Positions 11,509 to 64,000 are shown, numbered from the stretch's first letter. The stretch: 64,000 bases of DNA from Synechococcales cyanobacterium (GCA_035285585.1 JAYKGU010000021.1:3283-67282); one strand, 5' to 3'. Translations and numbers: made by a program. The notes: a model not told the origin generated them from the sequence alone.

Positions 11509-11656
11509 CCCCCAGTGGCTGCAGGATTAACAAATCTTGAGGGGCGGGCACCATCTCTCCCCGAAAGTCTAGAAGCTGCACCACCGCCAGATAGGCAAAG
11601 CTCAGCAGTAGGGCGATCGCCCCAGTAATAATGGCGACAATTTTTGATCGATCCAT
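11477..11656 (-). CDS. Candidate 59-aa single-TM small protein (below the ORF-track cutoff)
   Basis: Translated by hand: MDRSKIVAIITGAIALLLSFAYLAVVQLLDFRGEMVPAPQDLLILQPLGVIAASQLPFL; hydrophobic helix; overlaps the convergent kinase 3' end. Confidence 0.25.
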   Translation of the reverse strand: MDRSKIVAIITGAIALLLSFAYLAVVQLLDFRGEMVPAPQDLLILQPLGVIAASQLPFL

Positions 11657-11870
11657 CTTTCGCTCCGCCGTTTAAATTTTGAAGTTCTGCTTGCATTATC
11701 TCCCAGGACAAGGGGGCAGCGCTGTGGGAAGACGGCATTTCAAAAACACCGCGCCCTAAATCGGGAGTTAAGTGGTTGAACAAAACTATTTTCGTGGGGG
11801 TGTGCGCCCCCACAAGCTGTAATTAATTGTGCTTGAGCACTTAATCCTAAACAATGGAGGCTGGGGTTAG

Positions 11871-12200
11871 CTAAAAATCATCCGTAGGCAGGAACGTCTC
11901 AAACTCATCACGGTTTGCGTATACCTCAAACTTATCCGTCAGGCCAGCCCGCTCCAGCTCTGCCAGAGTTTGCGAGTTAAGGGAGCACAGCGATAGTTTT
12001 GCCCCCGCACGCCGCACCCGATTGCGAACAATCATCAGGGTGCCAATCCCGCTGCTGTCAATAGTTTCCACCTGACACAGATCGATGAGCAACAGTTGTG
12101 CTCCGGCTTCAAGCTGAAGATTGACCCAATACAGCAAGTCAGGGGCGATGTTCGTACCAAGGGTGGAAGTAGCGGGTTCATAGATGGAGGCATTCGTCAT
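11871..12200 (-). CDS. STAS-domain anti-sigma-factor antagonist (SpoIIAA-like)
   Basis: STAS pattern LLLIDLCQVETIDSSGIGTLM...AKLSLCSL; 109 aa. Confidence 0.75.
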   Translation of the reverse strand: MTNASIYEPATSTLGTNIAPDLLYWVNLQLEAGAQLLLIDLCQVETIDSSGIGTLMIVRNRVRRAGAKLSLCSLNSQTLAELERAGLTDKFEVYANRDEFETFLPTDDF

Positions 12201-12399
12201 TAGCAGAGTAAATCTGATGAGACGGCAACATAGGAGTCGAATTAATCTCCTTCCACCAATATCCAGCTCTCTTAACTCGGATCAGGAACTTGCCTTCGGG
12301 TTCCGACTTAAAGCGGCCCAAAATTAGCGGGAGGTTTGAAGTGGACCCAATCTTCCGCCTCAAGTTGATATAGCGTTACGCTTTCGCATTAGGATATTT

Positions 12400-12460
12400 A
12401 AGAGGGGTAGAACCCATACGTCGCGGGGGTTCCACACTCAAACCTTAGCCCGTAGGGCCA
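12400..12460. repeat. Dispersed repeat family A (hairpin-containing; second copy at 45540..45605 in inverted orientation)
   Basis: cgtcgcgggggttccacactcaaaccttagcccgtagggccatacc; the reverse complement of 45541-45603 matches with one or two mismatches. Confidence 0.7.
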
Positions 12461-12753
12461 TACCCTTTACCTTCTGTATTTGCCCAGCCCCCCTGGTAAC
12501 AAGAGAGTTTTAAGGGCACCTCGATTAATTGCCTTGTTGCGAATCTATAAAGCCTGCAACCATTGGAATTTCCCCGTCATTCTCAATAAGTATCTGGCCA
12601 CAAATAAAGCAAGTGGAGTTCAAAACCCCACCATAGCATCGTTTATTTATGGCTACCTACTTAGGATCTGTATTTTTCTTCGATCGGCGTAGAATTCTAT
12701 GACTCTACAGGTCGGATAATTACAGGTCATCTAAACTCACGATCCTAAGTTCC

Positions 12754-13224
12754 TCAGCTCAGCCGAGCTGTACACTCCAGAATGAGCTTTTGGTTAATTA
12801 AAGCGTAGGGTTGAATCTCCAGAGCGCGACGAAATGCCCGGATAGCGAGCTGATAGTTGCCCAAAGCTGCATAGCACAACCCCATGCCGTGCAGCGCCCC
12901 GAAATGAAACGGGGCCAATTCAATCACCGCCTGACAGTCGGCCAGCGATTTACGATATTGCTCCCGCATGTAGTACAAAACAGCACGGCGGTTCCAGGCT
13001 TCAATAAAATCAGGCTGATCGCGGATGAGATCAGTGAGGAGCGTTTCGGCTTCCAGATACTCCCCAGCTTGCAGCGCGATTTGGCTTTGCTGGAGGATGC
13101 TCAGGCCGTAATCTCCCTTTTGCTGAAACCAGCCCTGCCAGAGCTGGTGAGTTGCTTGTTCTCGAACCGCTTCATCTGGATGCTTCAGCTCTTCAAGTAA
13201 AACCCTCAGGGTGGTTTCATCCAT
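12754..13224 (-). CDS. TPR repeat protein
   Basis: Three or more TPR-like units (AWNRRAVLYYMREQYRKSLADCQAVIELAP...). Confidence 0.6.
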   Translation of the reverse strand: MDETTLRVLLEELKHPDEAVREQATHQLWQGWFQQKGDYGLSILQQSQIALQAGEYLEAETLLTDLIRDQPDFIEAWNRRAVLYYMREQYRKSLADCQAVIELAPFHFGALHGMGLCYAALGNYQLAIRAFRRALEIQPYALINQKLILECTARLS

Positions 13225-13325
13225 GACTAGGTGCCTTTGCGGGTAACGACTGCTGCTGATATCCAGCTGATATCAAAGGTTAAAGAACCCGATTTCAGTC
13301 TAGCGTCTGTTTATCAGCACGCGGG

Positions 13326-14336
13326 TCATCTGGCGATCGCCCCCCACCCTTGAGCACCAAACCCCATAAGCCAGAGGGGAATCGTGAGAACCAATAACCC
13401 CGTTGTTAAGACAATGCTGCTGGCAATCAAATCGCGATCGAGGTCGTATTCTTCCGCCAGGATCAGTCCTGCGAAGGCCGTCGGCATCCCCGACATCAGC
13501 ACCAGCGCCAGCCGGGCATCGGAAGCTAGACCCATCTCAGATGCCACCAATCCGACCAGGGCGGGCAGCACCAGCACCTTAATAGCCGCAGGCAGCAGAC
13601 TTAACCGCAGGCTCTGCCAGCCCCGAATCTGGCTGATGCGCATCCCCAGCAGCGCTAGCGCTAGCGGAATAACAATGCCAACGGAGGCATGAAGCCCGGT
13701 TTCCAGGGGGAGTGGGAGGGGCACATTTTGAGTAGCCACCCCCACCCCGAAGGCCCAGAGGGAGGGAACCGTCAGCACATCTCGCAGAATCATCCACCAG
13801 CGACGCGTGGGAGCCGATCGCCCAAAGTAGCTGGCAATGAGCACCCCCAGGCCATAGGTGCCAACAATGTTATGGGTAACGCTGTAGGACACGATCCAGC
13901 TCAGATGGGAGTCACTGACGAAAATGGGGGCGATCGCCAGCCCTACAAACCCCGTATTGCCGATAGCTGAGGAGATGAGGAAACTGCCCTGCCGCGACTG
14001 GTTTTCCCAGCCCAACTGAACATTCCAGGCCTGGCCAGTGTCAGGATAGGCCGGTTCGGGAGCGCTGGGGTTGACTCGCCGCAAAGCCTGAAGGGCGAAC
14101 CAGGCCATTGGGATGGACACCAACAACACTGCAATTGTAAAAGCAGGCGAAAGCCCTACCTCTGCTGAAAAACGGGTCTGGCGCGTGAGCGCCAGAATTT
14201 CCAGCGGCACCCCCACCCAAAACAAGGCACGCCCCAGTAAACGAGGTACCTGGTCGGGCAAAACTAGAAACAACAAAAAACCCAGCACCGTCCAGCCCAA
14301 GAGGGGGACGTATGCCTGCAACAGCATATCCGTCAT
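13326..14336 (-). CDS. Membrane transporter, auxin-efflux-carrier (AEC) family-like
   Basis: ~10 predicted TM helices; N-terminal LPLLGWTVLGFLLF pattern typical of AEC permeases. Confidence 0.5.
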   Translation of the reverse strand: MTDMLLQAYVPLLGWTVLGFLLFLVLPDQVPRLLGRALFWVGVPLEILALTRQTRFSAEVGLSPAFTIAVLLVSIPMAWFALQALRRVNPSAPEPAYPDTGQAWNVQLGWENQSRQGSFLISSAIGNTGFVGLAIAPIFVSDSHLSWIVSYSVTHNIVGTYGLGVLIASYFGRSAPTRRWWMILRDVLTVPSLWAFGVGVATQNVPLPLPLETGLHASVGIVIPLALALLGMRISQIRGWQSLRLSLLPAAIKVLVLPALVGLVASEMGLASDARLALVLMSGMPTAFAGLILAEEYDLDRDLIASSIVLTTGLLVLTIPLWLMGFGAQGWGAIAR

Positions 14337-14466
14337 GCAGTTTTGCGCCCTGGTGCGGCGTCACGGTTAAAAATTAGGGTAAGTCCCCTAGAACTCATCC
14401 TAAGGATAGCGGATGGGGTTACTCCTTTAGATTCCTGGCGCAGATGTAGATTCCTGGCGCAGATGA

Positions 14467-16725
14467 CTAGCGCAGGTCAATAGACTGCACTTTCCACCCG
14501 TTTTCATCTCGAACCAGGTCGTAGCTGACCTGTACCTCGCTGTCGTAGGACTGGGACAGGTCGAGCTGGCCATTCTTATAAAAATTGCCTACTTCTGTGA
14601 CTGTGGCGTAGATGGTTGCCTGATCGGGGGTTTCCTCTTCCCATTCCACCGACTCCACCGTCAGGTTGGGATGTTCGTACTCCAGATACCAGCCGCCTGC
14701 CTGGGCCGACGTGGACTGCCCCTGCCACTTATCTAGCAGCGAGCCAACCAGAATCTCACTCAGCGCTTCCGCATTGTGATTTTCGCCCATGGCTGCCGAT
14801 TTGGCTGCCAGCCAGGCACGAATGACCTCAATAGCCCCTGCTTCGGTCAGTTCTCCCTCGGCACTGCTGAGGGCGGGGGGTGGTTCGTTCGGGTCGGGGA
14901 TGGTAACAACGGGCTGATTCAGAGAGATTTGGAGTTGCTCACCCTGGAGGGCTGAGGTCTGCGATCGCTGACTCAGCAAACCGTACACCCAACTTGCCAG
15001 AATCCAGAGGATAATTATTCCGATGACCCCCATGGCCGCCAGGAAGAGTAGCCGATCCAACCGGGGGGGCTGGCCTTTGCCAACTCCCCGGCGGCTGAGG
15101 ACGGTTCCTGCAGGGGTTTTTAGCTCGGTCTTGGGGATGGTGTCTGTAGACCGCGATCGCCAGTTGCGCGGCGGTGAGCCGCCATTGCTGCTATCCAACT
15201 CCCGCTGGCTGAGACGGCCCTCCGGGGACAATTGGGAAACCCGCTCTGCCACAGGGAGGGTGGCCATGGGGGTGCTGGCCTGCCCATTGCCGTAGGCTGA
15301 GTTGCCCACGGTGGCGGTGGCTGCCCCAATACGAGCGTAGCGATCGCCATCGGGCGTCGCGGCTCCGTTGCCAAAGCGAGACTGGCTGCGCCCGTAGCCG
15401 ACCGGGGTCGCCACTTCCCAATCACCTGTATGTTCAGCCTCGTGGGGCATGTTTTCCAGATAGCTTTGCACCTCCGCATCTGCGAAGTAGTCTTTCAGGG
15501 ACGTGGTTTCTTCGGCCAAATCTCGGAAGTGAGGGAACACTTCGCCCTGGAGCCACTGCTCAGCATAGAGACACAGCCCCGGCAGCAGGTCGGGGGCACC
15601 GCGAGAATGTTCTTGAATATAGGCAAGGGCGTCCTGCTCGCTGCTCTGCTCGAGAAATTGGCTGGCTTCTGCTGTCTGCCCCAGTAGCAGGGCACAAATT
15701 GACTGCTCCAGGCTGACATCCTGTCGGACGCTCAGCCGCACCAGCAGCAGTTGGGCGCGGCGGACGAGGGCGGGCTGCCGGTAGGCAAAACCGCCAGCAA
15801 TCAGCGCATAAACCGCTAGATAGGTAGCCACGGCTGAGGGACGACGGGCCTCGGTTTCGAACAAACTTTGCTGTTCTGCAACCGTGAGGTAGCTGCGGAG
15901 CTGCTGAATAAACCGCAGAAAGTCGTCAGTACCTAACCCGGACTGATCGTTGCCGCTGCCGTCGATTCCTCCCCGCTCGTGGAGCATATCCTGTAGCAGG
16001 CGCAACCCCTTGTAGCGCTCTGCCTCGTTTGCCTCAGGGAGGGCAAGCAGCTCAAGAATTCGGTAGGGGCGTAGTTTAAATAAATCGGCTTGCATTTCAC
16101 CTCTGACGCTGGCAAATAACCCTTCTCTTAGCAGTAGTTCCTGTCCTGTTTCCAATGATTCTGCCGCATTTTCGTACTGCCCTTGCTGCCACTGCTCCCG
16201 TCCTAGCTCTAAACACGCCAGGGCAATGGTCAGGACAATGTCAGCCCCCACAATATCGGGTGCGCCAAATCGACCGCTCTCCAGGCTGACGTTGCCACTG
16301 CTAAGGTAGGGGCGGCCTAGCCGCAAGACCAGCTCATATTCGCCCAGCTCAAGCAAAATCAGCAGCGCCCCCACCAGCTGATCGTCTCGCACCTCAATGC
16401 GCGGTGTATAAGAGTCAGCTACGTCAGCGGTGGCAAAGGAGGAAAATTCATCAGTGGGTCGATCGGCGGACGGGGCTTCATCCTGCGCCTGAATGGTTTC
16501 GTAGGATCTGGCTAGAAAATTGGCGTCATAGGCTTGTCGCTGGGTGGAGTCGCTGAGGATCTCGTAAGCTTCGTCGATGAGTTGACGTCGCACGGCGATC
16601 GCCACTTCCGAGTACTCGCGCCGGGGAAGTTGCAGGGTGCGATCGCGGTGGGCGTGCCTGAGCTGCTCGTCAGTCGCCTGAATGGGAAGTCCTAAAATTC
16701 GGTAATAATCAAGCGGTATTTGCAC
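14467..16725 (-). CDS. zipN: Cell division protein ZipN/Ftn2 (ARC6 homolog)
   Basis: N-terminal J-like domain MQIPLDYYRILGLPIQAT; central TM helix (LLFLAAMGVIGIIILWILASW); C-terminal ARC6-like domain. Confidence 0.7.
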   Translation of the reverse strand: MQIPLDYYRILGLPIQATDEQLRHAHRDRTLQLPRREYSEVAIAVRRQLIDEAYEILSDSTQRQAYDANFLARSYETIQAQDEAPSADRPTDEFSSFATADVADSYTPRIEVRDDQLVGALLILLELGEYELVLRLGRPYLSSGNVSLESGRFGAPDIVGADIVLTIALACLELGREQWQQGQYENAAESLETGQELLLREGLFASVRGEMQADLFKLRPYRILELLALPEANEAERYKGLRLLQDMLHERGGIDGSGNDQSGLGTDDFLRFIQQLRSYLTVAEQQSLFETEARRPSAVATYLAVYALIAGGFAYRQPALVRRAQLLLVRLSVRQDVSLEQSICALLLGQTAEASQFLEQSSEQDALAYIQEHSRGAPDLLPGLCLYAEQWLQGEVFPHFRDLAEETTSLKDYFADAEVQSYLENMPHEAEHTGDWEVATPVGYGRSQSRFGNGAATPDGDRYARIGAATATVGNSAYGNGQASTPMATLPVAERVSQLSPEGRLSQRELDSSNGGSPPRNWRSRSTDTIPKTELKTPAGTVLSRRGVGKGQPPRLDRLLFLAAMGVIGIIILWILASWVYGLLSQRSQTSALQGEQLQISLNQPVVTIPDPNEPPPALSSAEGELTEAGAIEVIRAWLAAKSAAMGENHNAEALSEILVGSLLDKWQGQSTSAQAGGWYLEYEHPNLTVESVEWEEETPDQATIYATVTEVGNFYKNGQLDLSQSYDSEVQVSYDLVRDENGWKVQSIDLR

Positions 16726-50190: not shown

Positions 50191-51354
50191 CTATGATCGC
50201 GGTCTCTGACGCAGCGCTTTCAGCTCTTGCTGAGCCAGTTCGCAGTCTGGAGCCGCCGCCAGGGCAAGCTCGAATGCCTGCTCCGCCTTTTCCCAGTTTT
50301 GCAGTTCCAGATGGGCCTGTCCTAACGCGCAAGCGGGGTCAACATGGAGCAGCCCCCTATCAAATGGCTCTACGGAATAGAACTGATCGGTTTGCGAGAG
50401 GCGTAGACAGGTTTCGAAGTAAGGAACTGCGCCCAGGGCAAATCCAGCATTGAGGAGCACTTTCCCGGCAAAATAATTCATCGGCAGGGCATTGGGAAAC
50501 CACTCCAGCCCCCGCTGGCACAGTAGAAATGCCGTTTCAAAATCCTGACGATCCACCGCTCCCTCTGCCAGCGTCAGCATCATCGTAATAAGCCAGTAGG
50601 AGTCGGCTGGTTTATCGCCCGTCAGCAGGTGGGGCAGCAGCCGATCCATCGCTTCGGCATAGCAGTGATTAGCGGCATCGTCTTGCCCGACAGACAGATA
50701 GTTTCTGGCAAGGCAGTCCAGCAACCAAAACGACAATCCCTCCTCGCAACGAATTTGCTCCAGAATGGGGATATTGCGTGACAGCGTCTTTTCCCGTACC
50801 AGATCCTCATCGCTATTGCCGTGGTGGAGAATTTGTGCGCCTGTTAGCTGGGCGTATTGTTTGGGGCGATCGCCCTCATAAACCAACTGCTCGTGGTAGC
50901 GACCGCGATACTGAAACCCAGGAATATTTTGGAAAAGCCTGACATGGAAGCCGCCCACCATGTTGGACGCGTATTGGCTGGGCACCAGGTCGACCCGATC
51001 GATAGCGAAGGCGAGAATATCCCTGGATGACTCGATCTGGGAACGAAAGGCAGCCGCATCCCCCGTCAATTCCTCATCGGCGTCCAGGATGAGAACCCAG
51101 TTGCCCGATGCCTTAGAAATTGAGTAGTTCCGCGCCGCTCCAAAATCATCGCGCCAGGCAAAGAAATCGACAGTTGCCCCATACTGTTGGGCGATCGCCA
51201 CGGTCTCATCACTGGATCCGGTATCGACGATGATCATTTCGTCAACCCAGGCGCAAACACTCGACAGACAACGATGGAGATTGTGGCTCTCGTTCTTGAC
51301 GATCATGCAGAGGGAGAGGCGTAGCGGAGCCGTTTCGACAGAGGCGGGGGTCAT
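50191..51354 (-). CDS. Glycosyltransferase family 2 with C-terminal TPR repeats
   Basis: LSLCMIVKNESHNLHRCLSS...IIVDTGSSDET; TPR-like C-terminal half. Confidence 0.7.
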   Translation of the reverse strand: MTPASVETAPLRLSLCMIVKNESHNLHRCLSSVCAWVDEMIIVDTGSSDETVAIAQQYGATVDFFAWRDDFGAARNYSISKASGNWVLILDADEELTGDAAAFRSQIESSRDILAFAIDRVDLVPSQYASNMVGGFHVRLFQNIPGFQYRGRYHEQLVYEGDRPKQYAQLTGAQILHHGNSDEDLVREKTLSRNIPILEQIRCEEGLSFWLLDCLARNYLSVGQDDAANHCYAEAMDRLLPHLLTGDKPADSYWLITMMLTLAEGAVDRQDFETAFLLCQRGLEWFPNALPMNYFAGKVLLNAGFALGAVPYFETCLRLSQTDQFYSVEPFDRGLLHVDPACALGQAHLELQNWEKAEQAFELALAAAPDCELAQQELKALRQRPRS

Positions 51355-52790: not shown

Positions 52791-52868
52791 CGCTGTAATT
52801 TGTTTATTTACAAGATTCTCCTCCAGGCTTTAACTATTTGGTTTCGAACCAAAATTTCTAAACACTCA

Positions 52869-53756
52869 ATGAATATCTTGTTTATTTCGTCGGGGTTGAT
52901 GCCGGATTATCAGTGTGATTCCCTTTTTCATGGGTTAAGGGAAGTCTTTGGAAATGGGGTGGTTGATATAAACAAAGTTGAATATATGTATAAAACCTTT
53001 CCATTATCAGAAAAGCCAAACCTCTACGGAAAAGGATTTACACTGTACGGGCTTTTAGAGGATGAATCGGATATCGACAGGAGTGATATAGAGAGCAAGA
53101 TTAAGCACAGATTCTTCGACTTCATCGTCTACGGTAGTATTCACAGGTGTCAAACTTATGTTGAAACCGTTCTGGACATCTACCCACCCGAAAATATCGT
53201 TTTCATTGATGGAGAGGATGATGGCAAGGTCATAAATCTACTGCTCAACAGGGGCTTCTATTTCAAGCGAGAGCTTCAAGCAGAAAATCGCTTCATTTTG
53301 CCAATTCACTTTTCCGTGCCGAAGGACAAGTTTATTAATGACATTTACGAATTAGAAAAACTCAGCTTTCGGTCCCACTGTGATCCTAGAGATCGGAGTA
53401 CTTACATCTATGAAAAGGAGGAGGACTATTACCAGCAGTATCAAGAAAGCTTCTTCGGTTTCACTACGAAAAAAGCCGGATGGGATTGCTTACGTCACTA
53501 TGAAATCATTGCTCAAGGATGCGCCCCGTACTTTCCCGATCTGTTAGACTGCCCCTATTTGACGATGCATAGATTTCCTCGCCTGGAAACGATAAGGCTG
53601 ATGGAAATCGCCGACTACTGCGTTCAGAACGAGTATCTGGATATGGAAGGATATTTATCTAATCTTGAGTACCTTTTTAACTACGCAAAAAAATATTTGA
53701 CGACGGCAGCAGTTGCCAGCTATGTTATTGAGCAATTAAAATCTTATTCCAATTGA
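52869..53756 (+). CDS. Hypothetical protein, first gene of the low-GC island
   Basis: Low GC; no recognisable motif; ATG at 52869 (MNILFISSGL...). Confidence 0.4.
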   Translation: MNILFISSGLMPDYQCDSLFHGLREVFGNGVVDINKVEYMYKTFPLSEKPNLYGKGFTLYGLLEDESDIDRSDIESKIKHRFFDFIVYGSIHRCQTYVETVLDIYPPENIVFIDGEDDGKVINLLLNRGFYFKRELQAENRFILPIHFSVPKDKFINDIYELEKLSFRSHCDPRDRSTYIYEKEEDYYQQYQESFFGFTTKKAGWDCLRHYEIIAQGCAPYFPDLLDCPYLTMHRFPRLETIRLMEIADYCVQNEYLDMEGYLSNLEYLFNYAKKYLTTAAVASYVIEQLKSYSN

Positions 53757-53845
53757 ATAAATTTATCTAATTTCAAGCAAGATATAAGTTCTTTAATAAA
53801 CTAGATACTATTGCATGTTCTCTTTGCAAGCGCTGGTGCCCCCAT

Positions 53846-56800
53846 ATGACCTCTCTACCTACTCCTACACGTGTTGATATCGGCTGTGGACCTCGCAAGG
53901 CTCCGGGCTTCATTGGGGTTGATATTGCCCCTATCCCTGGGGTTGACATTGTTGCTGACCTTAACAAGAAGTTCCCCTTCGAAGATAGTACTGTAGACGA
54001 GCTGCGTGCCTATGATGCAATTGAGCATCTCGTCGATCGCATACACACCATGAACGAAATCTGGCGTGTCTGTAAACCCGGTGCAAAAGTTGATATCTTT
54101 GTGCCTTCTAGCGATGGGAGGGGTGCGTTCCAAGACCCAACGCACGTCAGTTTTTGGAATATCAACTCTTTCAAGTACTACTGCATTGAGTTTCCTGGCT
54201 ACATCGGTTTATGCCATCAGTACGGGTTTAAAGGCGCATTTCGGCTACTCGAAGCAGGGCACGTAAAATCTCCTGATGAGGTCATCCATGTTAGCGCGAA
54301 ATTGGAGGTCGTCAAACCTGTTCCGTGGGATGCCGAGCTATCAGGCGTTCCGTCTCAGGCTCACACACTTCGTCAAGAGGCGACTCAAACGAGTGCTACA
54401 GAGATTAAAGAACCGGTTTCCTCGCTTGACTATGTGATTCCTCCTGAAATTAAGCACGATGAGTCTGATCAAGCGATTCAGCAGATTACTCAGGAAGAGG
54501 AGATTCGCACCATTTCTGAAATCGGCTCCTTGTCAGGGCAGAGCAGTATGGATACATTAGAGCGGGGCAGTATGGATACATTAGAGCAGGGCAGTATGGA
54601 TACATTTACTTATAAGGGAAAGGTTTTCCATTATAACAGTATAAAGTACAACAATCCGAGCGAGAGAGCTGTAGAAATTCCCATTGGTTTTGAATTCCTT
54701 GTCAGAAACTCACGCAAGAGTAAGATATTAGAAGTTGGGAATACATTGTCTAATTATGAAAATTTCCTAAGTGAATATATTGGAATAAAAAACAGAAAGA
54801 TTATCGACAAGTTCGAGAAAAACATCGGTGTAGATCAGATTGATTTGATGGAAATCCCATCAACAGAGAAATATGGTGCCGTTGTTTGTATCTCAACAGC
54901 AGAGCATATTGGACAGGGAGAAAATCCCCAAGGAATTTATGGCGAAGTAGCCAATCATGAGAGGGATAGGGAAGCTCCATTAAAGGGGATAGCCAAAATT
55001 TATGAGATCCTGGAAATTGGGGGAGAAGCGCTAATAACTGTCCCTTTTGGGAAATTAATTGATGGAAATTGGTATATTCAGTTTAGCCAGGAATATCTTG
55101 ACTTGTTATTTCAGAAGTATCAAGTCAGGAAGCAGGATGCCTTCATTGGTTTCTTGAAAAAAACTGATATGAGAACTAGCGAAGATTATCCTTATCCAAC
55201 TTACCAAAGATGGATTCAGGTTGAGAATCCTGAAGATTTATCAGACGTTGAATATAATAATCCTTTTCTCTTCGCAAATTCAATTGCTGTTATTGAGTTA
55301 AGTAAGAGTGACCACAGCTTTCGACTCAACCTTGCAAAGCCACCCTCAACACTTGAGTATGCATCCCCCATTGAACTGGAAACAGCAGTTGGCCGACTAA
55401 AAATAGAGAAAGCCATTCAGAGAAAGGATTCAGCTGGTCGGGTCTCTGAAGCGCTTGAGAATTACAAATCTACTAAACACCCATATATTGCTATCGATGG
55501 CGTTTTCTTTCAACTTTATAATACTGGCATTGCAAGGGTTTGGCGCTCGCTTCTTGAGTATTGGTCCAAAAATGAGTTTAGAGACCATATCATTGTTCTT
55601 GAGCGCGGAGACTCAGCCCCAAAATTCCCTGGAATAAAGTACCTTTCGATTCCTGAATATAGTTACAATTCGGCTACAGAAGATAGAGGGATTTTACAAG
55701 CTGTTTGTGATTATTTAGAAGTTGACTTATTCATTTCAACTTACTACACTTCACCCATTTCAACACCTTCTGTTTTCATGGCGTACGACATGATTCCAGA
55801 AGTAATGGGGTGGGATTTGAATCATCCTATGTGGCGCGAGAAACATCGTGCTATCCAACAAGCATCAGCGTATGTTTCAATATCACAGAATACAGCTAAT
55901 GATCTAGCTAAATTATTCTCTGGTATTGACTCAGATCAAATAACAGTTGCTTTATGCGGCGTAAGTGACGTCTTTAAACCTGCATCAACTGAAAACATTA
56001 TTCAATTCAAAGAAAGATATAGTATCACTAAGCCTTATTTTATTCTGGTAGGAGCAAACAGCGGACCTCAGAGCTATAAAAATGCTATTTTGTTCTTTCA
56101 AGCGTTTGCCAAGTTGCCTAGTAGAGCTGGATTTGAAGTGATTTGCACGGGTTCAGATTCGATACATGAAGCGTTTCGAGAATATGTATTTGGTACGAAG
56201 ATCCATGCTTTGAGATTAAGCGACGAAGAACTAGGAGTAGCGTATTCAGGAGCGATCGCTCTAGTCTATCCTTCCAAATATGAGGGTTTTGGGTTGCCTC
56301 TAGTCGAAGCAATGGCATGTGGCTGCCCTATTATTACTTCCCCCAATGCGTCTATTCCAGAAGTAGTGGGTGAAGCAGGGCTTTATGTGAATAGTGACGA
56401 TGTGATTGGCATGACGACTGCCCTCTGTGAAATTCAGAAACCTGAACTTCGTCAGTCCCTTATCTCTGTAGGTAAAGAGAGAGCCGAGCAGTTTACTTGG
56501 CAGTCAATGGCTGAGACTGTTCAAGCCGCATTAATTCGTACGACCTTGGCGAACTTGAATTTACAGGATATCAACTATCTTGCATTTCCTGATTGGACTC
56601 GGCCCATAGAGACCTTGGGTGAAGAGTTTCAGAATATTCTCCGCTCTCTTAGTCATCATCCGGACAAAGAGCGGATGACTTTAGTGCTCGACGGGAGTGA
56701 TATTGCAGAAGAAGAGGCTGAATTGCTCATGTCCAGCATTGCAGTAAACCTGATGCTGGAGGAAGAAATAGATTTTGGAACCGGACCAAAAGTCGCATTA

Positions 56801-56938
56801 ACTGGAGAACTTAGTTCGATGCAATGGAGTAATTTACTAAAGCTAGTTCAAGGGAGGATTTCGTTGGAAGGAGAAAATACGGCAAAAGTTCAGGGAGTTA
56901 ATGCTTCTTTGCTACCGATTATTGAATATGATATGTGA
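53846..56938 (+). CDS. 1030-aa fusion: class I SAM methyltransferase, a second Rossmann MT-like domain, and a GT4 (group 1) glycosyltransferase
   Basis: [18 protein letters not shown] (MT motif I); central ILEVGN...; C-terminal [20 protein letters not shown] (GT4 E-x7-E); internal 3x24-bp tandem repeat. Confidence 0.75.
54535..54606 (+). repeat. 3 x 24-bp perfect or near-perfect in-frame tandem repeat encoding (Q/R)GSMDTLE
   Basis: cagagcagtatggatacattagag / cggggcagtatggatacattagag / cagggcagtatggatacattt. Confidence 0.8.
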
Positions 56939-57033
56939 AGTAACGTCATTTTGCTCAACTACTTCTAGACAAGTAAATAGTGCTCTGATTACATTAATGG
57001 CGTTAAAGCATAGATGGAAATCGAGTTCTTATT

Positions 57034-57933
57034 TTGTATACCGTAGAATTATTCACAACCTACCCCTATTCTGAGATGCCAAAAGAGTATGAGATCGGTT
57101 CCTACAAAATTATGTTGCCTGATGATCATCAACTTGATCATTATCAATCTGTATATCCTCGTTATGATATTTGTTTGGGATATATCTCGCAGTTTGCTGC
57201 TCTCAAATATCAGAATTTAACTGTAATTGACGTTGGGGCAAACGTTGGCGATAGTGCTGCACTGATTCAAAAATATCAGAGCATTCCAACTTTATGTATT
57301 GAGGGCAATCCAGAGTTCCTGGAGTACCTTGAACACAATGCAGAAGTTATTGGAAACATTCAGATCGAAGATTGTTTCATTGGGAAAGACGGCGAATCTG
57401 TAGATTTGAGTAAAGTATGGATGCAAGGTGGAACGGCTTCGATTGTTAATGCAGTCAATTCTGACGGATTTTTCTATGTGAACATGAAAAGCCTTGAAAC
57501 GATTTTAGAAGGTCATCCATCTTTTCGTAACTTTAAACTTATAAAATCTGACACTGATGGTTTTGATTTTTCTATTATCAAACAATCAAAGGAAATTCTT
57601 CAGGTGAATAAGCCGATTATCTATTTTGAATATTCAACACTTTTTCACTTGTCAGCTTATACTGAATCATTGGAAGCGATAACAGTTTTAATCGAGTGTG
57701 GCTATACAAAGTTTCTAGTGTATGATAATTTTGGTAATTATGTGATAAGCTTGGAGGATGATCTTGAGAAATTTATCGATTTGACTACTTTTCTCTTCTC
57801 AAACTTACGGTGTAACGGGAGAGCAGCAGTATATTACCTGGATATTTGTGCATTTACAAACGAGGATTTGGACTTGTTTGAATCAATTAGGGAAAAAGAA
57901 CTTGAACTTATCCAAGTAACCCTAAGTAGGTAA
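57034..57933 (+). CDS. FkbM-family methyltransferase
   Basis: LTVIDVGANVGDSAALI motif; low GC. Confidence 0.7.
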   Translation: MYTVELFTTYPYSEMPKEYEIGSYKIMLPDDHQLDHYQSVYPRYDICLGYISQFAALKYQNLTVIDVGANVGDSAALIQKYQSIPTLCIEGNPEFLEYLEHNAEVIGNIQIEDCFIGKDGESVDLSKVWMQGGTASIVNAVNSDGFFYVNMKSLETILEGHPSFRNFKLIKSDTDGFDFSIIKQSKEILQVNKPIIYFEYSTLFHLSAYTESLEAITVLIECGYTKFLVYDNFGNYVISLEDDLEKFIDLTTFLFSNLRCNGRAAVYYLDICAFTNEDLDLFESIREKELELIQVTLSR

Positions 57934-58069
57934 AGGCAGAGAAACTCAGCTACATAATTACATAATTACGTTAGTGGCAGACAACGCCTCACCGTCCAGC
58001 AAGTCCGCAAATTAGCAGAGCAATTTCACGTTTCACCGGCAATCTTCGTGTAAGCAGTCAATTCTTGTC

Positions 58070-60301
58070 CTACCGTCGCGACTCCAGATACAGTGCCCAC
58101 ATCCGCTGATAGGCATCCTCCATATCTTGGGTAAATTGCCGTCCATTCCAGAGTGGGGCTGTTTTTCGAGATTGAATTAGCTTCCATGTCACTTGAGATC
58201 GAAGGGAATGATCCGTTCCCAGACGAATGCCCCAGTCCACATATTCCTCATCTGTCCAGGCAATACCTTCCACAACGCCTCCATTCACCATCATGGTATA
58301 GCTATTGCGGGCAGCAAACTGGGTGCCTACCCGCGTAACCAGCGGAATGCCCATCCATAGGGTTTCCAGCGTGGTGGTGGCTCCGTTGTAGGGATAGGTA
58401 TCCAGAACCACGTCAGCGATACCCAGATTGGCGCGATGGTCAGCTTCAGAGCTAACCATCGGTAAAAACCGGAGGCGATCGAAGCTAACCCCCTCCTCTT
58501 CTGCAATCTGGCTAAAGAGATGCCTGACAGCTTCCTGGTCTGCCTTTCCCTTGATTAGGAAATAGCTGTTGGGGACGTTTCGCAAAACTTGCATCTGTAG
58601 CCGTACCGTATCGGGATGGCGCTTATATCCACTTTGATTGCTGAGATAAACGATTGCATCACTGGGAATATCAAGGGCATCGCGACGTAAATTAGGGATA
58701 CCCACTTCAAAGCCATCTACGGCGATGTAAGTTTGAGGCAATCGCCAAATTGTTTCTTTATAGTATTTTTGGGCATCCGGTGGCAGCACGTACGGGTCGG
58801 CCATGAAGTAGTCAACCGCCGGTAGTCCAGAGGCATCCCAACCCAGCCAGGTAACCTGGATAGGTGCTGCCTTCAAGGCCAAAACCTGACAAGTTATGGG
58901 AGCTGTGATGCTATCTAAATCAACTAAAATGTCTATCTGATCTTTGTGAATTTGGTCAGCAATCGCCTCAGATTTTGCCTCTATCTGATAAGCCTGATCC
59001 GCCTGACGCATATACCAATCTTCCAACGGGTCAGGCATCTCGACAGCATACTGAATGTGATAGGTATAGACCCTGACGCGATCACGGCGGTGGTGTTGAA
59101 TTAACCAGCGAGCCAACCAACCAACTGAATGAGTCCGCAAGCATCGGGAGAGGTAGCCAATTCTCAAAGGACGGGAAGAAGCTTGAATCTTTTGTTGATT
59201 GAGTTGGTGTTCAGTGAGTTCGTATTTACCAGACAAATCAACCCCGGCGTCCTGCTCTACCCGCATAATTGTCTGGCAAATCTGGGTTGTCCGATTGGTT
59301 ATAGCCCGATTTTCTTCAATATCGTCCTTCATGTAAGGCAGCAGAAAAACAGAACTAAATAGTTTACGAATATCGCGATCACTCACATCAGGCTCATCAT
59401 CCAGCGAGAGGTTGCTCAACAGGTTTACGTAATCAGTCCAATCGGGCAGGAAGTCATTCCGCCGCCCTCCTGATGCGGCGATTCCACGGAGGATCAAATA
59501 CTTGGCATAAATCTGATCGACGGATGACTGGACCAGTGTAAAGCAGCGATGAGCAACCTGAATGCCCTGCTTATAGTGATGGATATTTTGATAGAAAGCC
59601 GCTAGCTCTTCTAAAACGATAAGGTTTGTCGGATTAAGCTGGAGGCAGATCTCGGCAATCTGTAGCGCCGTGTCCCATGATTTCCAGGTATAGGCTGCTT
59701 GTTTAAGCGCTTTGATCAGAATACGGTCTCGCTGGGAAGACGGTTCCAGATAAGTTGATGCCAGGCGAAGGCATTCAAGAATCATCGGATTAGTGGGATC
59801 CCACTCCAAAACTGCTTGCAGGGTTTCTGACAGTACCTCCGATTTGCTTTCATCAGGTGTCGTAATTGAACCAAAGGCGTCTACCAGCGACAGGTCTACT
59901 AGACGCTCGGTGGTTAATGTCCTAAGCCTGCTTTCTAGAATGACAATTTTGAAGCGGTTATAGATGTTTTCAGGATTTAACTCGTAAATATACTGTCGAA
60001 TTGCCCAGGCGACTGAGTGATTGTTATAGGACTCCTGGTGCTTGGCCTCAGTATCTAAAATTTGAACTAATTCTGACAGACCACTGTACCCATCTTCGGT
60101 GTCGCAATTCATGAGAGCAGCCATCCAGACTGCCTGGGCTTCCGCTTCTTCACCTTGAAGCAAGAGAGCCAGTCCCAGGTACCAATAATGAGTGTGAATT
60201 GCGGGTTCTAACTCAATGGCATGGCGATAACACTGCTCTGCACCAGAGTAATCCTTTGCTACCCAGCGTTGATGAACCTGTTGTTGCCAATCGTCTTGCA
60301 T
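58070..60301 (-). CDS. TPR-repeat / GT41-like (SPINDLY/OGT family, COG3914) glycosyltransferase, paralog 1 with lower GC (track ORF extends to 60367 via a GTG)
   Basis: C-terminus DTYPYNGATTTLETLWMGIPLVT...MWALYLESRR resembles the OGT catalytic C-lobe; N-terminal TPRs. Confidence 0.7.
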   Translation of the reverse strand: MQDDWQQQVHQRWVAKDYSGAEQCYRHAIELEPAIHTHYWYLGLALLLQGEEAEAQAVWMAALMNCDTEDGYSGLSELVQILDTEAKHQESYNNHSVAWAIRQYIYELNPENIYNRFKIVILESRLRTLTTERLVDLSLVDAFGSITTPDESKSEVLSETLQAVLEWDPTNPMILECLRLASTYLEPSSQRDRILIKALKQAAYTWKSWDTALQIAEICLQLNPTNLIVLEELAAFYQNIHHYKQGIQVAHRCFTLVQSSVDQIYAKYLILRGIAASGGRRNDFLPDWTDYVNLLSNLSLDDEPDVSDRDIRKLFSSVFLLPYMKDDIEENRAITNRTTQICQTIMRVEQDAGVDLSGKYELTEHQLNQQKIQASSRPLRIGYLSRCLRTHSVGWLARWLIQHHRRDRVRVYTYHIQYAVEMPDPLEDWYMRQADQAYQIEAKSEAIADQIHKDQIDILVDLDSITAPITCQVLALKAAPIQVTWLGWDASGLPAVDYFMADPYVLPPDAQKYYKETIWRLPQTYIAVDGFEVGIPNLRRDALDIPSDAIVYLSNQSGYKRHPDTVRLQMQVLRNVPNSYFLIKGKADQEAVRHLFSQIAEEEGVSFDRLRFLPMVSSEADHRANLGIADVVLDTYPYNGATTTLETLWMGIPLVTRVGTQFAARNSYTMMVNGGVVEGIAWTDEEYVDWGIRLGTDHSLRSQVTWKLIQSRKTAPLWNGRQFTQDMEDAYQRMWALYLESRR

Positions 60302-60367
60302 ATTTACATTCACAGTGATTTTAACCGCGGTAATTTCTCTTAAAAGCCCTTCACCCAGTTTGCCCAC

Positions 60368-60480
60368 ATCTGCTGATAGGAATCCTCTATACCGTGGATA
60401 AACTGTTGCCCATCCCGCAGAGGATTCGTTTTGCGGGATTGGAGCAGTTTCCAGGCTACCTGCTATCGGAGCATTTGATC
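60368..60480 (-). pseudogene. Remnant 3' end (~35 codons) of a fourth TPR/GT41-like gene
   Basis: The reverse complement translates ...LLQSRKTNPLRDGQQFIHGIEDSYQQMWAN, matching the paralog C-termini (LIQSRKTAPLWNGRQFTQDMEDAYQRMWALY). Confidence 0.5.
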
Positions 60481-60616
60481 CGTTTCCAACAAACGCTTCA
60501 ATCTCCTACTCCTTAATTTGTCCAAACAATGCCCTCCTATAAGCCCACATTCACCATCGACTTGGTGTTCGCCCTACCGATTGTGTTTTCTGAGGAAGCT
60601 CTCCTTCGCATCAAAA

Positions 60617-62878
60617 TTACCGTCGCGACTCCAGATACAGCGTCCACATCTGTTCATAGGCATCCTCTATCTCGCGGGTAAACCGTCGCGTATCCCAGAG
60701 CCGTGCCGTGTGCCGCGCCTTCTGCAACTGCCACCCAATTTTTTGCCGCAGCTTCACATCCGTTCCCAGGCGGATGCCCCACTCCACATACTCCTCAGTC
60801 GACCAGGCAATGCCCTCCGTCAGGCCCACATTCACCATCATAGAATAGCTGTTGCGGCTGGAGAACTGCTGCCCCACCTGGGTTACCATCGGCACCCCCA
60901 TCCACAGGGTTTCCAGCGTAGTGGTGGCCCCATTGTAGGGGTAGGTATCCAGCACCACGTCGGCGATCGCCAGATTAGCCCGATGGGTCGTTTCGCTGGG
61001 CACCTCCGGCAGAAAACGGAGGCGATCGCCCGCCACCCCCGCCGCTTGAGCCGTCTGGATGAAGAAATCCTGGAGCGAGGCTTCCTGGCTGGAGCTTTTG
61101 GTGAGCAGGTAGCTATTAGGCACCGCCTGCAAAATCTGCATTTGCCGCTGCACCGTGTCGGGGTGGAGCTTTTGCCCCCGCTGGGCGCTGAGGTAGATCA
61201 CCGCATCCGCAGGAATGCCCAGCTCATCCCGCCGCAGGCTGGGCACCGTGGCCTCTACCCCGTCGATGGCCACAAAGGTAGACGGGAGCCGCCAGAGGGT
61301 TTCCCGGTAATCTGCCTGGGCATTGTCTGGCAGCACGTAGGGGTCGGTAATGAAATAGTCCACCGCTGGAATTCCGGGCGCATCCCAGCCCAGCCAGCTA
61401 ATCTGCACGGGGGCGGGCTTCAGGGCCATTACCTGACAGGCCACGTCAAAGGTGGCGCTATCCAGGTCAATGAGCACGTCAATCTCGTCGTCATGGATTT
61501 GCTGAGCCACCGTCAGGGCATCGGCGGGCAGGCGATGGGCCACCTCCGCCCAGTCGGCAAACTGATCCTGCAAAAAATCCGTGCCCTGGGAGCCTGCCCC
61601 CACAAAGTAGGCATGGAGCATCAGCCGCTCCCGGTCGTGGTGTTGGAACAGCCAGCGCACAATCCAGCCCACGGAGTGCCGTCGCAGGCAGCTCGACAGG
61701 TAGCCCACCCGCAGCCGTCGGGGAGAAGTTTGGGCAGATGGGGCCACACCCGCCCGCCAGCGTCTGCGATAGGTGGCCACTGGGTCGGGCAGCAGGCGTT
61801 CCAGATGGGTCTGGCACAGTTGGCCCAGGGCGTTTTGCAGGGCGCGGTTTTCCTGGGGGGCATCGCGGAAATAGGGCTGGAAAAATCCCATCGTAAACAG
61901 TTGGCGCACCTCATCGCGGCTCAAGTCCGCTGGGGGAGCCGCCAGCAACTGCCGCAGCAGTGCTTGTTCCTGCTGAAAGTGCTGACAGCCCTGCTGCCAG
62001 TAGCCACCGCGAATCATCACCACCTGAATCATTAAGTGCTGGGCAAAAATCCGGTCGGTGACGTTCTGGGCCAGCTCCAGACAACGCTGGGCCGTGGTGA
62101 TCGCCTCGTCATAGCGCACCGCCCGCTGATAAAACCCGGCCAACTGCCGCAGCATCCCCACATGATCCGGCTGAAACTGAAGGCAGCATTCCGCCAGCCG
62201 CACCGCCAGCGCTGGCTTGTGGTTCACATAGGCAATCTTATTTGCCGCCTGCCTCACAATGCTGGTGAAGCGATCGCCATAGTCCGCCAGCTCCGCTACC
62301 CAGGCTGCCGCCCCATTGACCAGGGCGGAGAGTAAATCATCGGCGCGATCGCCCCGCAGTGACTCATCACAGAACAGCACCTGGGCCACCACTTGCAGCA
62401 ATAGATCCAGGTTGACCTCACTGGGGTTAGCGGCTGCAAGTGCCTCCAGGACGCCCCAGTCCTCCAGATGCTCGGCGGCAAACTGCTCCTGCATGATGTC
62501 AAGCTGCACCAGCAGCAGCAAATTGTTAAGGGCATCGGGGGCAATTTCCCGCAGGTGCTGGCGAATCAGCCAGGCCCGATCGTAGTGCCGCTGCTCGTGC
62601 TGGCGGGCCGCCTCAGTGTCCAGGACTTGCAGCAGCTCCAGGGTCCAGTCGGCCACCTGGGCCTCATCCCCAGCGGCGAGGGGCGTCATCCAGATGGCCT
62701 GGGCCTCCATTTCTTCGCCCTGGAGCAGCCGCACCAGCCCCAAATGCCAGTAGTGGGAGACAACATCGGGTTCGGCTTCGATGGCCTGCCGATAGAGGGC
62801 TTCTGCCTGGGTGTAGTTGCCTGTGGCGATGTAGCGATCGCCCTGTTGCCGCCAGTCGGATGTCAGTTCTTGCATCAT
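60617..62878 (-). CDS. TPR-repeat / GT41-like (SPINDLY/OGT family) glycosyltransferase, high-GC paralog 2
   Basis: DTYPYNGATTTLETLWMGVPMVTQVG...MWTLYLESRR; alignable along its length with paralog 1. Confidence 0.7.
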   Translation of the reverse strand: MMQELTSDWRQQGDRYIATGNYTQAEALYRQAIEAEPDVVSHYWHLGLVRLLQGEEMEAQAIWMTPLAAGDEAQVADWTLELLQVLDTEAARQHEQRHYDRAWLIRQHLREIAPDALNNLLLLVQLDIMQEQFAAEHLEDWGVLEALAAANPSEVNLDLLLQVVAQVLFCDESLRGDRADDLLSALVNGAAAWVAELADYGDRFTSIVRQAANKIAYVNHKPALAVRLAECCLQFQPDHVGMLRQLAGFYQRAVRYDEAITTAQRCLELAQNVTDRIFAQHLMIQVVMIRGGYWQQGCQHFQQEQALLRQLLAAPPADLSRDEVRQLFTMGFFQPYFRDAPQENRALQNALGQLCQTHLERLLPDPVATYRRRWRAGVAPSAQTSPRRLRVGYLSSCLRRHSVGWIVRWLFQHHDRERLMLHAYFVGAGSQGTDFLQDQFADWAEVAHRLPADALTVAQQIHDDEIDVLIDLDSATFDVACQVMALKPAPVQISWLGWDAPGIPAVDYFITDPYVLPDNAQADYRETLWRLPSTFVAIDGVEATVPSLRRDELGIPADAVIYLSAQRGQKLHPDTVQRQMQILQAVPNSYLLTKSSSQEASLQDFFIQTAQAAGVAGDRLRFLPEVPSETTHRANLAIADVVLDTYPYNGATTTLETLWMGVPMVTQVGQQFSSRNSYSMMVNVGLTEGIAWSTEEYVEWGIRLGTDVKLRQKIGWQLQKARHTARLWDTRRFTREIEDAYEQMWTLYLESRR

Positions 62879-62931
62879 TACGCCTGTCCTGCCCGTTTCT
62901 CTTCTGTGTGGATGTTTCCCAAGGAATGCGG

Positions 62932-63270
62932 CTAGAGATACAAAACCATCCGCAACCCCTCGTCTACCTCCGCTTGCAAGTAGTCTGGTAGTGAGCCGAT
63001 CCGTTCGGTTAGGAATGCTTTATCAACGGTAGAAATTTGCGATACGTTTGCAACAGAATCCCTGAGTAAACCTGACGCTTCCCGAGGCAACAACACATTT
63101 CCGGGTGCTTCTGCTAATTGGGTATTCGAGGTAATGATCACGACGATAACCGTCTTGATACGGCTTTGAGTAAAGACATCATCTTGAATTACCAAAACAG
63201 GACGACGATACCCCGGTTCTGAACCGACTGGATTCGGTAAATGCGCCCACCACAGTTCTCCCCGATACAT
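62932..63270 (-). CDS. Type II toxin, MazF/PemK family
   Basis: RGELWWAHLPNPVGSEPGYRRPVLVIQDD...TVIVVIITS pattern; ATGA overlap with the upstream antitoxin. Confidence 0.65.
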   Translation of the reverse strand: MYRGELWWAHLPNPVGSEPGYRRPVLVIQDDVFTQSRIKTVIVVIITSNTQLAEAPGNVLLPREASGLLRDSVANVSQISTVDKAFLTERIGSLPDYLQAEVDEGLRMVLYL

Positions 63271-63506
63271 TACCAATCCTCATGAGGCAGAGACATAAAT
63301 TGCATCTTTGCTATTACTGGATCAAGCTCAGAAGGCTCTCTAGAGTAAACCTGGTTCAACTTGTGCAGAATTTGATTGCGGTTGTACTTTTTCAAGTAAG
63401 CTTTTAACGCCTGGGTGTAAAGCTCACTACGGGACAAGCCAAGCCGCTGGGCCAACGCTTCTGCCTCTTCAAAAACAGAGTCTGGAAGCGAAATTGCAGT
63501 TTTCAT
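63270..63506 (-). CDS. Ribbon-helix-helix-type antitoxin
   Basis: 78 aa; MKTAISLPDSVFEEAEALAQRLGLSRSELYTQAL (RHH-like); immediately upstream of the MazF-like toxin. Confidence 0.5.
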   Translation of the reverse strand: MKTAISLPDSVFEEAEALAQRLGLSRSELYTQALKAYLKKYNRNQILHKLNQVYSREPSELDPVIAKMQFMSLPHEDW

Positions 63507-63691
63507 AATGACCTCGGTAATCAGCCCTACTCTTCAGGTTACACCCTGGTTATACCAAAGCTGCAATCCTCATGTGCCATTGTTTTGGAACGATCATTTG
63601 ATTGATTCTACCTTTGGTGGGGCGGAGCATTCGGTGGGAAGCTTTTGCAGAAGTCAATAACGTGTTGGCCGAATGCTTCGCCCCTACGGGG

Positions 63692-64000
63692 TTATGCCTC
63701 TAAATAGGTGGCCCACATTTGCTCGTATGCCCGTTCCATTTCGCGGGCGAACTGGCGACCGTTCCACAGGGGGGCGGTCTGGCGGGACTGCTTTAGCTTC
63801 CAGTGGATTTGCTCCCGCAGGGCGCGATCGCACCCCAGACGCACGCCCCACTCGACGTATTCCTCATCGGTCCAGGCGATGCCTTCGGTGATGCCTGCGT
63901 TAACCATCATGGTGTAGCTGTTGCGGGCAGCAAACTGTTGCCCCACCCTTGTCACCAGGGGAATGCCCATCCATAGGGTTTCCAGGGTGGTGGTGGCCCC
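63692..64000 (-). CDS. TPR/GT41-like glycosyltransferase paralog 3 (3' part only; gene continues past the window end)
   Basis: MGIPLVTRVGQQFAARNSYTMMVNAGITEGIAWTDEEYVEWG...MWATYLEA; the open frame continues to position 64000. Confidence 0.7.
   Translation of the reverse strand, partial: GATTTLETLWMGIPLVTRVGQQFAARNSYTMMVNAGITEGIAWTDEEYVEWGVRLGCDRALREQIHWKLKQSRQTAPLWNGRQFAREMERAYEQMWATYLEA

Follow-up and report, generated by a model that had tools for sequence, protein, structure and literature searches.

We analyzed a 64,000-nt stretch of DNA from a Synechococcales cyanobacterium (GCA_035285585.1, JAYKGU010000021.1:3283-67282), referred to below as the window, whose last 6 kb (58070-64000) carries an array of minus-strand genes encoding tetratricopeptide repeat (TPR) proteins with a glycosyltransferase family 41 (GT41) domain. 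We consider it probable that this segment is the distal part of a pilin-associated TPR-GT41 array that turns over by birth and death of its members where it borders a variable glycosylation island. In the order in which it is transcribed, the array consists of P3, a mazEF-like toxin-antitoxin pair, P2, the remnant of a fourth copy (P4), and P1, after which it meets the island head-on. The features are given below by window position, with GC content, GC content at third codon positions (GC3), and sites for the HIP1 octamer (GCGATCGC).

P3, 63692 to >64000, minus strand: TPR-GT41 gene truncated by the end of the window, which leaves its last 102 codons; GC 0.608, GC3 0.757
RHH antitoxin gene, 63270-63506, minus strand: ribbon-helix-helix protein (CopG/RHH_3), 78 aa; GC3 0.481
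mazF, 62932-63270, minus strand: MazF/PemK-family toxin; GC3 0.470
P2, 60617-62878, minus strand: intact TPR-GT41 gene, 753 aa; GC 0.620, GC3 0.755; 5 HIP1 sites
P2 terminal 23-mer, 60618-60640, minus strand: same as the terminal 23 nt of P1; interval of the switch in contig L002
P4 remnant, 60340-60556, minus strand: 3′ ~217 nt of a fourth TPR-GT41 paralog; pseudogene
Conserved block, 60328-60380, minus strand: 53 nt identical between the window and contig L001
P1, 58070-60301, minus strand: intact TPR-GT41 gene, 743 aa from ATG 60301; GC 0.486, GC3 0.495; 0 HIP1 sites
P1 terminal 23-mer, 58071-58093, minus strand: CTGTATCTGGAGTCGCGACGGTA, same as the terminal 23 nt of P2
HTH remnant, 57973-58053, plus strand: last 26 codons and stop of a helix-turn-helix (HTH_3/XRE-type) gene, convergent with P1
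Low-GC island, 52800-57933, plus strand, opposite to the array: GC 0.33-0.49; GC3 of its genes 0.33-0.47

Family assignment of the copies

The Pfam family Glyco_transf_41 (PF13844; gathering cut-off, 25 bits) matched P1 (159.5 bits, E = 1e-46), P2 (171.4 bits, E = 3e-50), and the P3 fragment (49.3 bits, E = 3e-13). Only one or two TPRs were detectable per protein with Pfam, namely TPR_2 (29.9 bits; cut-off, 27) and TPR_11 (29.6 bits; cut-off, 26.8) in P2 and TPR_17 (27.0 bits; cut-off, 24.4) in P1. With the catalytic domain present in all three and weak TPR matches besides, these results bear out an earlier note on this DNA, which had described three minus-strand TPR/GT41 paralogs. A search of NCBIfam gave nothing above threshold and only sub-threshold matches to TPR and VapB models.

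P2 could be aligned with human OGT over both catalytic lobes (E = 1e-53; human residues 551-709 and 823-1028), the metazoan intervening domain being missing from the alignment, and also with TtOGT (5djs), XcOGT, and Arabidopsis SPINDLY (SPY; 7y4i and 8dtf; E = 8e-45). The P2 positions matching H498, K842, H901, and T921/T922 of human OGT are conserved; that of D925 is occupied by Glu, as in SPY (E752), and that of H920 by Ala. By inspection, P1 has the same catalytic motifs as P2. Judged from these residues, the catalytic halves of the copies look competent for catalysis, and family membership predicts glycosyl transfer to Ser/Thr residues of proteins.

The donor sugar was considered by way of three residues that differ between SPY (K689/A731/Y744; GDP-fucose) and human OGT (L866/R904/C917; UDP-GlcNAc) (Kumar et al. 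2023, PMC10027727). The corresponding residues of P1 are K/N/Y, two of them SPY-like and the third matching neither enzyme, as mapped by their conserved distances to the catalytic Lys (+24) and His (+3 and +16) and not on a structure. In P2, HMMER placed a two-residue gap near the first of these positions. The K/N/Y signature may thus be SPY-like or intermediate.

A degenerate fourth copy between P2 and P1

A tblastn search of the whole window with P1 and P2 found no additional GT41 copy except a short degenerate match between the two genes. This remnant was detected with P1 as the query (E = 1e-10) and independently by repeat finding (families D2 and D4); it can be aligned to the 3′ end of each of the three genes and contains a 1-nt frameshift and in-frame stop codons, and its homology was extended by MAFFT to ~60577 across a 19-nt gap. 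A 752-aa open reading frame (ORF) at 14467-16725, taken up as a candidate further copy, was rejected, being an ARC6/Ftn2 homolog.

A related Joint Genome Institute (JGI) metagenome contig, L001, reached via its 85% ortholog of P1, carries an intact GT41 gene (P4; 61-1605, at least 514 aa) that precedes the P1 ortholog. The C terminus of its product (...QQMWANWVKGF, then the stop) is the tail encoded by the window remnant, and BLASTN aligned L001 1388-3877 with window 60556-58068 at 83.8% identity. Because the remnant is collinear with an intact gene that shares the same tail, it is the orthologous last ~217 nt of P4. The fourth-copy remnant of ~110 bp that had been proposed at 60368-60480 is therefore real and alignable to the paralog 3′ ends, but its length is about doubled, to 60340-60556. 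An internal deletion in the window genome would have removed P4 except for these last ~217 nt, and the stub would afterwards have gained its frameshift and stop codons.

Over 2.5 kb with a mean identity of 84% between the window and L001, only one exact run is longer than the 53-nt block, which covers the end of the remnant, the stop codon of the remnant, and the annotated GTG start of P1. Since it spans both of the latter, it was probably kept for P1 expression, and it probably holds the translation-initiation or promoter region of P1 or an N-terminal extension of P1. In the public annotation, P1 (P0001, 100% identical) starts at GTG 60367 and has 765 aa; the gene callers placed the start inside the block both in P0001 and in P0002, which is also 765 aa long. 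The ATG at 60301, which had been suggested as the real start, is present and yields 743 aa, a length typical for the family. The longer form is compatible with the data because the block is conserved and a slight excess of third-position changes occurs just downstream of it; GTG 60367 is thus an alternative start.

The perfect conservation of the block at 60328-60380, together with the P1 start called inside it, would also suit an explanation in which the remnant, instead of being a relic, serves P1 as a leader, promoter, or small ORF and just resembles GT41 3′ ends. We regard this as quite unlikely, as the conservation is limited to the last ~50 nt of the remnant, the upstream ~165 nt are only 63-80% identical to L001 and contain the frameshift and stops, and the whole stretch is collinear with the intact gene of at least 514 aa in L001. 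The remnant is a relic whose distal end is retained for P1, which is compatible with a functional element at that end: the last ~50 nt would have been kept, probably for the start region of P1.

Absence of P4 and P1 from a close relative

A second contig from the same metagenome, L002, carries an ortholog of P2 (P0121) at 94% nucleotide identity and has neither P4 nor P1. It comes from a closer relative than L001, as a flanking 262-aa gene is ~90% identical to that of the window in L002 and ~82% in L001. After the stop codon of the P2 ortholog, L002 continues with ~97 nt that are about 80% identical to the window sequence following the P1 stop. In L002, this stretch closes an HTH_3 gene that is intact (143 aa; 2307-2738), and its counterpart in the window is the HTH remnant, which lies 16 nt from the P1 stop; the tails, each followed by the stop, read SGRQRLTVQQVRKLAEQFHVSPAIFV in the window and SGKQSLTVQQIRKLAEQFHVSPAVFV in L002.

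We located the junction by comparing sites that distinguish P1 from P2. Before the 23-nt block, the bases of L002 agree with P2 alone at 63 sites and with P1 alone at about 5 (the before-stop P1-type count of 15 includes 10 gap columns after the stop), and after the stop they are of the P1 type at 45 sites and of the P2 type at 4. The switch from the P2 type to the P1-downstream type falls within CTGTATCTGGAGTCGCGACGGTA, which is also the longest exact run shared by P1 and P2, the next longest being 14 nt. Such a junction is the footprint expected of recombination between direct repeats, by which L002 would have lost P4 and P1 through the 23-nt repeats at the 3′ ends of P1 and P2. A deletion of P4-P1 in L002 is favored because the more distant L001 carries both genes, and it is from this distribution that we infer the direction of the loss.

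Of the recombination-driven expansion and contraction put forward in the earlier note, contraction is thus supported by the P4 stub and the L002 junction in the 23-mer, whereas recent expansion is not, the copies being only 45-60% identical. Both the HTH stub and the P4 stub are collinear with an intact ortholog, and the P4 stub carries disabling mutations in addition. The HTH stub is a second pseudogene stub in the window that the earlier note did not contain; the HTH gene would have been clipped to 27 codons by replacement of the island.

Pilin genes beside related arrays

For statistics on arrays and pilin genes, we fetched 111 loci, and a metagenome scan with the P3 fragment supplied 80 of them. 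At least two GT41-domain genes were present in 41 of the 111, with tandem runs of up to four full-length genes (L050) and one of three in L106. Most tandem copies were separated by ~40 to 100 nt, but a few spacers reached several hundred nucleotides or more. An ORF with a type IV prepilin motif (GFTLIELLVVIIIIGIL..., GFTLIELL) was found on the same strand within 2.5 kb upstream of the array in 61/61 loci, the count being made over those among L003-L113 whose sequence extended 900 nt or more upstream of their first family copy. Some loci had two pilin copies (L056, L064, L106, and L110). When the motif was looked for in the window, L001, and L002, none was found, the upstream end of each of these arrays being cut off.

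In Synechococcus elongatus, Ogt (Synpcc7942_0051), encoded beside pilA, is needed for PilA glycosylation; in Nostoc punctiforme, loss of OgtA (Npun_F0677) abolishes PilA accumulation; and ogt and pilin genes are adjacent in 77/201 cyanobacterial genomes (PMC9306852). Because of this published link and the 61/61 related loci, pilin is the likely target, and by analogy the copies in the window would glycosylate pilin.

Decaying copies also occurred among the relatives. In a Planktothrix locus (L113, CP136572.1), the pilin gene and a full-length TPR-GT41 gene are followed by a second copy split into 594 and 131 aa (4182-6396) and then by glycosyl- and methyltransferases on the opposite strand. 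In L112, a pilin fragment is followed by a GT41 gene decayed into five small ORFs (4158-6363), and next to it the opposite strand carries a GT41 gene and a methyltransferase-GT2-GT4 fusion. These two loci were found via two stand-alone GT41 C-terminal fragments returned by the P3 search.

Many 90- to 180-aa GT41 C-terminal “proteins” in the databases may be relics or contig-end fragments. Two records, L004 (“MAG: Rhizobium sp. Q54”) and P0153 (a metagenome-assembled genome labeled “Actinomycetota bacterium”), represent typical cyanobacterial pilin and TPR-GT41 loci, and contamination during binning probably accounts for their taxonomic labels. L004 hardly differs from the Pseudanabaena locus L005; each has, at 9983-14443 and 396-4859, respectively, one ORF of ~1487 aa that encodes a fused double-GT41 protein and not tandem genes.

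Age of the copies and selection

P1 and P2 are 45% identical at the protein level over their full lengths, their catalytic halves being 60% and their TPR halves 32% identical. The TPR half is the substrate-selecting part of proteins of the OGT/SPINDLY superfamily, and in this comparison the TPR halves are strongly diverged while the catalytic halves are conserved. Over the last 102 aa, P1 and P3 are 78% identical and P2 and P3 69%; the 3′ 260 to 300 nt of the copies are 65-74% identical. C-terminal motifs are indeed shared by all copies, as had been noted before, but the lobes cannot be called near-identical at these values. In the catalytic half, P1 and P4 are each ~70% identical to typical homologs and 71% to each other, and P2 is the most divergent copy. 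The P3 tail is the most “canonical,” with 80-88% identity to many cyanobacterial homologs. Being only 45-60% identical, the copies are old paralogs, and a recent expansion is without support.

The search with the 102-aa P3 fragment returned short fragments only and no full-length P3, and the metagenome scan with the same fragment found no close ortholog, the best match being 88% identical. The search of species-representative genomes with P2 returned relatives at 48% identity or below. At the 3′ ends, the P1 ortholog of L001 is 80% identical to P3 in nucleotide sequence and the window P1 74%; gene conversion between P3 and the L001 gene was considered and rejected, since the shared states are the family consensus and the derived changes lie in the window P1.

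Both intact genes are under purifying selection, because the ratio of nonsynonymous to synonymous substitution rates (dN/dS) is 0.12 between P1 of the window and L001 (dS, 0.67) and 0.17 between P2 of the window and L002 (dS, 0.16). For a flanking core gene, dS is 0.98 against L001 and 0.32 against L002. The divergence of P1 is roughly in step with that of the flank, and therefore P1 is not a recent arrival.

Base composition and the origin of P1

We used the 34 ORFs of the window upstream of 52.2 kb as the core reference (GC3 mean, 0.661; standard deviation, 0.050; range, 0.525-0.734). The GC3 of P1 is 3.3 standard deviations under the core mean and smaller than any core value, and P2 and P3 slightly exceed the whole core range, so the contrast in GC described earlier between a low P1 and high P2 and P3 stands, with GC3 unequal across the copies. 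Along P1, GC3 is flat (0.42-0.58), with no gradient toward the island. The window has 90 HIP1 sites (1.4 per kb), but the interval of 52.8-60.4 kb is nearly empty, with one site, that in the 5.1-kb island. The P2 ortholog in L002 has a GC3 of 0.765, and the P1 ortholog in L001 has a GC3 of 0.544 and 3 HIP1 sites.

The earlier note had explained the low GC of P1 by xenologous replacement, but a foreign origin of P1 is not demonstrated by our results: the gene is syntenic in L001, the best cross-lineage match is ~52% with no donor in sight, and the tree shows no nesting. The best cross-lineage matches of P1 and P2 are in the same filamentous cyanobacteria, at about 50-52%, and Nostoc homologs among the P1 family matches are 49-50% identical. 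In a neighbor-joining tree, P1, P4, and P2 stand on long branches, weakly together (bootstrap, 30-39%) and nested in no other lineage.

Spelled out, this explanation, somewhat unlikely in our view, has P1 and the P4 stub as a xenolog, not an in-situ paralog, that was imported with the low-GC island from a lower-GC cyanobacterium by recombination in the conserved GT41 3′ ends. The deviating GC3 of P1, which is like that of the toxin-antitoxin genes and approaches that of the island genes, would be accounted for in this way, as would the lack of HIP1 sites against five in P2, the absence of P1 and P4 from the closest relative L002, and a GC3 of P1 that is lower in the window than in L001 despite the higher core GC3 of the window; the catalytic domain of P1 is, moreover, 70% identical to other cyanobacteria and 71% to P4 but 60% to P2. 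However, P1 and P4 occupy the same position in the more distant L001, and with a dS of the same order as that of the flank, any import would predate the split of the lineages. Nor was a donor clade found, the cross-lineage matches coming from the same taxa for P1 and P2, and P1 is not placed inside another lineage by the tree. Very unlikely, we think, is a contrast produced by local mutation and recombination regimes, e.g., GC-biased gene conversion in P2 and P3 with P1 drifting down. The GC3 of P2 and P3 above every core ORF of the window, the likewise high value of the P2 ortholog in L002, and the stepwise drop in GC from P2 to P1 to the island would fit it, but the composition boundaries are sharp and fall at gene ends, and no gradient exists within P1. 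P1 and P4 do behave as members of the flexible region, being atypical in composition, missing from the nearest relative, and flanked by gene stubs on both sides. P1 may have come by an older import or by exchange along with the low-GC island.

The toxin-antitoxin pair

A MazF/RHH pair had been reported between P2 and P3, and the expected domains were found there: PemK_toxin in MazF (94.9 bits, E = 4e-27), and RHH_3 (22.5 bits) and RHH_1 (21.6 bits), both just above their cut-offs, in the antitoxin. The two reading frames overlap as TAATG, and the likely start of mazF is ATG 63270, while the ORF listing starts at TTG 63276. The spacer between P3 and P2 measures 813 nt, at the long end for the family, with 575 nt taken up by the coding sequence of the toxin-antitoxin pair. 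A long spacer filled with coding sequence of foreign composition fits an insertion of the pair, which would have taken place between P3 and P2. The nearest plasmid MazF homologs are 53-54% identical and also paired with a CopG protein; with at most 54% identity to plasmid proteins, there is no sign of a recent plasmid source. A scan for promoters and terminators at 57.9-64 kb gave counts at or below shuffled expectation and was uninformative.

The island and the rest of the window

In the window, the island contains a 318-aa gene that matches no family, a 1030-aa methyltransferase-GT4 fusion (53846-56938), and an FkbM methyltransferase. At the same position, L001 has a 1471-aa TOD1-methyltransferase-GT41 fusion (3935-8350), and L002 has the HTH gene, a Uma2 gene, a 1030-aa pyruvyl-transferase-GT41 fusion (3629-6721), and a methyltransferase. 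A C-terminal module of ~125 aa (30-38% identity), which has no Pfam match and starts with N(Y/F)L(A/V)FPDW..., is common to the three giant proteins, and those of the window and L001 also share a methyltransferase segment at 74% identity. The giant proteins look like products of domain shuffling at one locus, and the presence of such a mosaic island beside the array suggests a strain-specific elaboration of a protein glycan, in which the island enzymes would extend or modify the pilin glycan.

The 1030-aa gene of the window contains three tandem 24-nt repeats (54535-54606) that encode an SMDTLE(R/Q)G linker between domains. A GT2-TPR gene on the minus strand (50191-51354) is present in the window and L001 and missing in L002, which resumes at window 50138, and represents another indel. 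Two more GT2 genes, a hexapeptide transferase gene, and a Uma2 gene lie at 45.6-51.4 kb. Elsewhere, two successive pairs of a phycobilisome-family gene and a V4R gene on the plus strand (6047-9341; 6047-6523/7092-7772 and 8146-8628/8685-9341) look like a duplicated two-gene unit. The window is part of a cyanobacterial chromosome, because it carries ccmM, ccmK, ndhF3/D3/chpY, ARC6, and phycobilisome genes together with the 90 HIP1 sites.

Discussion

Several points weigh against a pilin-associated array in birth-and-death turnover. The junction in L002 would look just the same if P4-P1 had been inserted in the lineages of the window and L001. The neighbor-joining tree is weak at its key nodes (30-39%), and the low GC3 of P1 persists though the core GC3 of the host exceeds that of L001, so that simple vertical inheritance is insufficient. 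The pilin gene is not within the window and would lie beyond 64000, so that the linkage is extrapolated here, and only 102 aa of P3 can be read. Finally, the assignment to Ogt was made by the architecture and by the synteny of relatives, and orthology to Synpcc7942_0051 or Npun_F0677 is putative.

A more far-reaching explanation, which we find rather unlikely, is a locus for pilin-glycan diversification that combines divergent TPR-GT41 paralogs with strain-specific islands encoding methyltransferase, GT4, GT41, and pyruvyl-transferase fusions. Each strain would then decorate its pilin differently, possibly from GDP-sugars, as the K/N/Y residues hint. Phages or grazers would supply the selective pressure, and recombination anchored in the conserved GT41 3′ ends would exchange the cassettes. 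If true, this would make the locus a cyanobacterial counterpart of the O-antigen and flagellin glycosylation islands.

With turnover of a pilin-associated array as the preferred explanation, the locus indicates that the pilin-linked Ogt gene can exist as a multicopy array that gains and loses members, and that this array borders a cassette region that is different in three close relatives. Type IV pili of cyanobacteria, which are known to be glycosylated by Ogt-type enzymes, serve in motility, biofilm suppression, flotation, and DNA uptake. Experimental confirmation of the arrangement just described would point to pilin glycans that vary from strain to strain. The kind of enzyme, the pilin linkage, multiple copies, and pseudogenization have all been seen elsewhere already, and the locus is a well-explained case of the birth and death of paralogs, i.e., of ordinary genome turnover, and no new kind of system.

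The toxin-antitoxin pair agrees with type II MazEF/PemIK modules in its PemK toxin, its upstream RHH (CopG) antitoxin, the TAATG overlap, and its low GC relative to the surroundings; nothing in it is unusual, as far as sequence alone can tell. Compared with Arabidopsis SPINDLY (PDB 7y4i and 8dtf) and human OGT (3pe3, etc.), the window proteins are predicted by sequence to have the same GT-B two-lobe GT41 fold, but they are bacterial, shorter (~750 aa), and have few recognizable TPRs, and their triad, as mapped by spacing, is K/N/Y instead of the K/A/Y of SPY or the L/R/C of human OGT (PMC10027727).

Like cyanobacterial Ogt/OgtA, the window proteins have an N-terminal TPR region and a GT41 domain without the metazoan intervening domain and with the catalytic Lys conserved, and a pilA-like gene lies directly upstream in the 61/61 related loci, as in the published adjacency. 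Unlike it, the window has at least three intact copies and a stub in tandem, with very divergent TPR halves, and the pilin gene is outside the window. The K/N/Y triad may also be closer to SPY than to OGT, whereas the S. elongatus Ogt has been reported to hydrolyze UDP-GlcNAc.

Gram-negative bacteria have islands for the glycosylation of pilin or flagellin, e.g., those with Pseudomonas TfpO/TfpW or the Neisseria pgl loci. Our array shares with these the arrangement of a pilin-linked glycosyltransferase beside strain-variable sugar-modifying genes of atypical composition, but the enzyme here is a cytoplasmic GT41 and not an oligosaccharyltransferase, and its function in pilin modification is a prediction.

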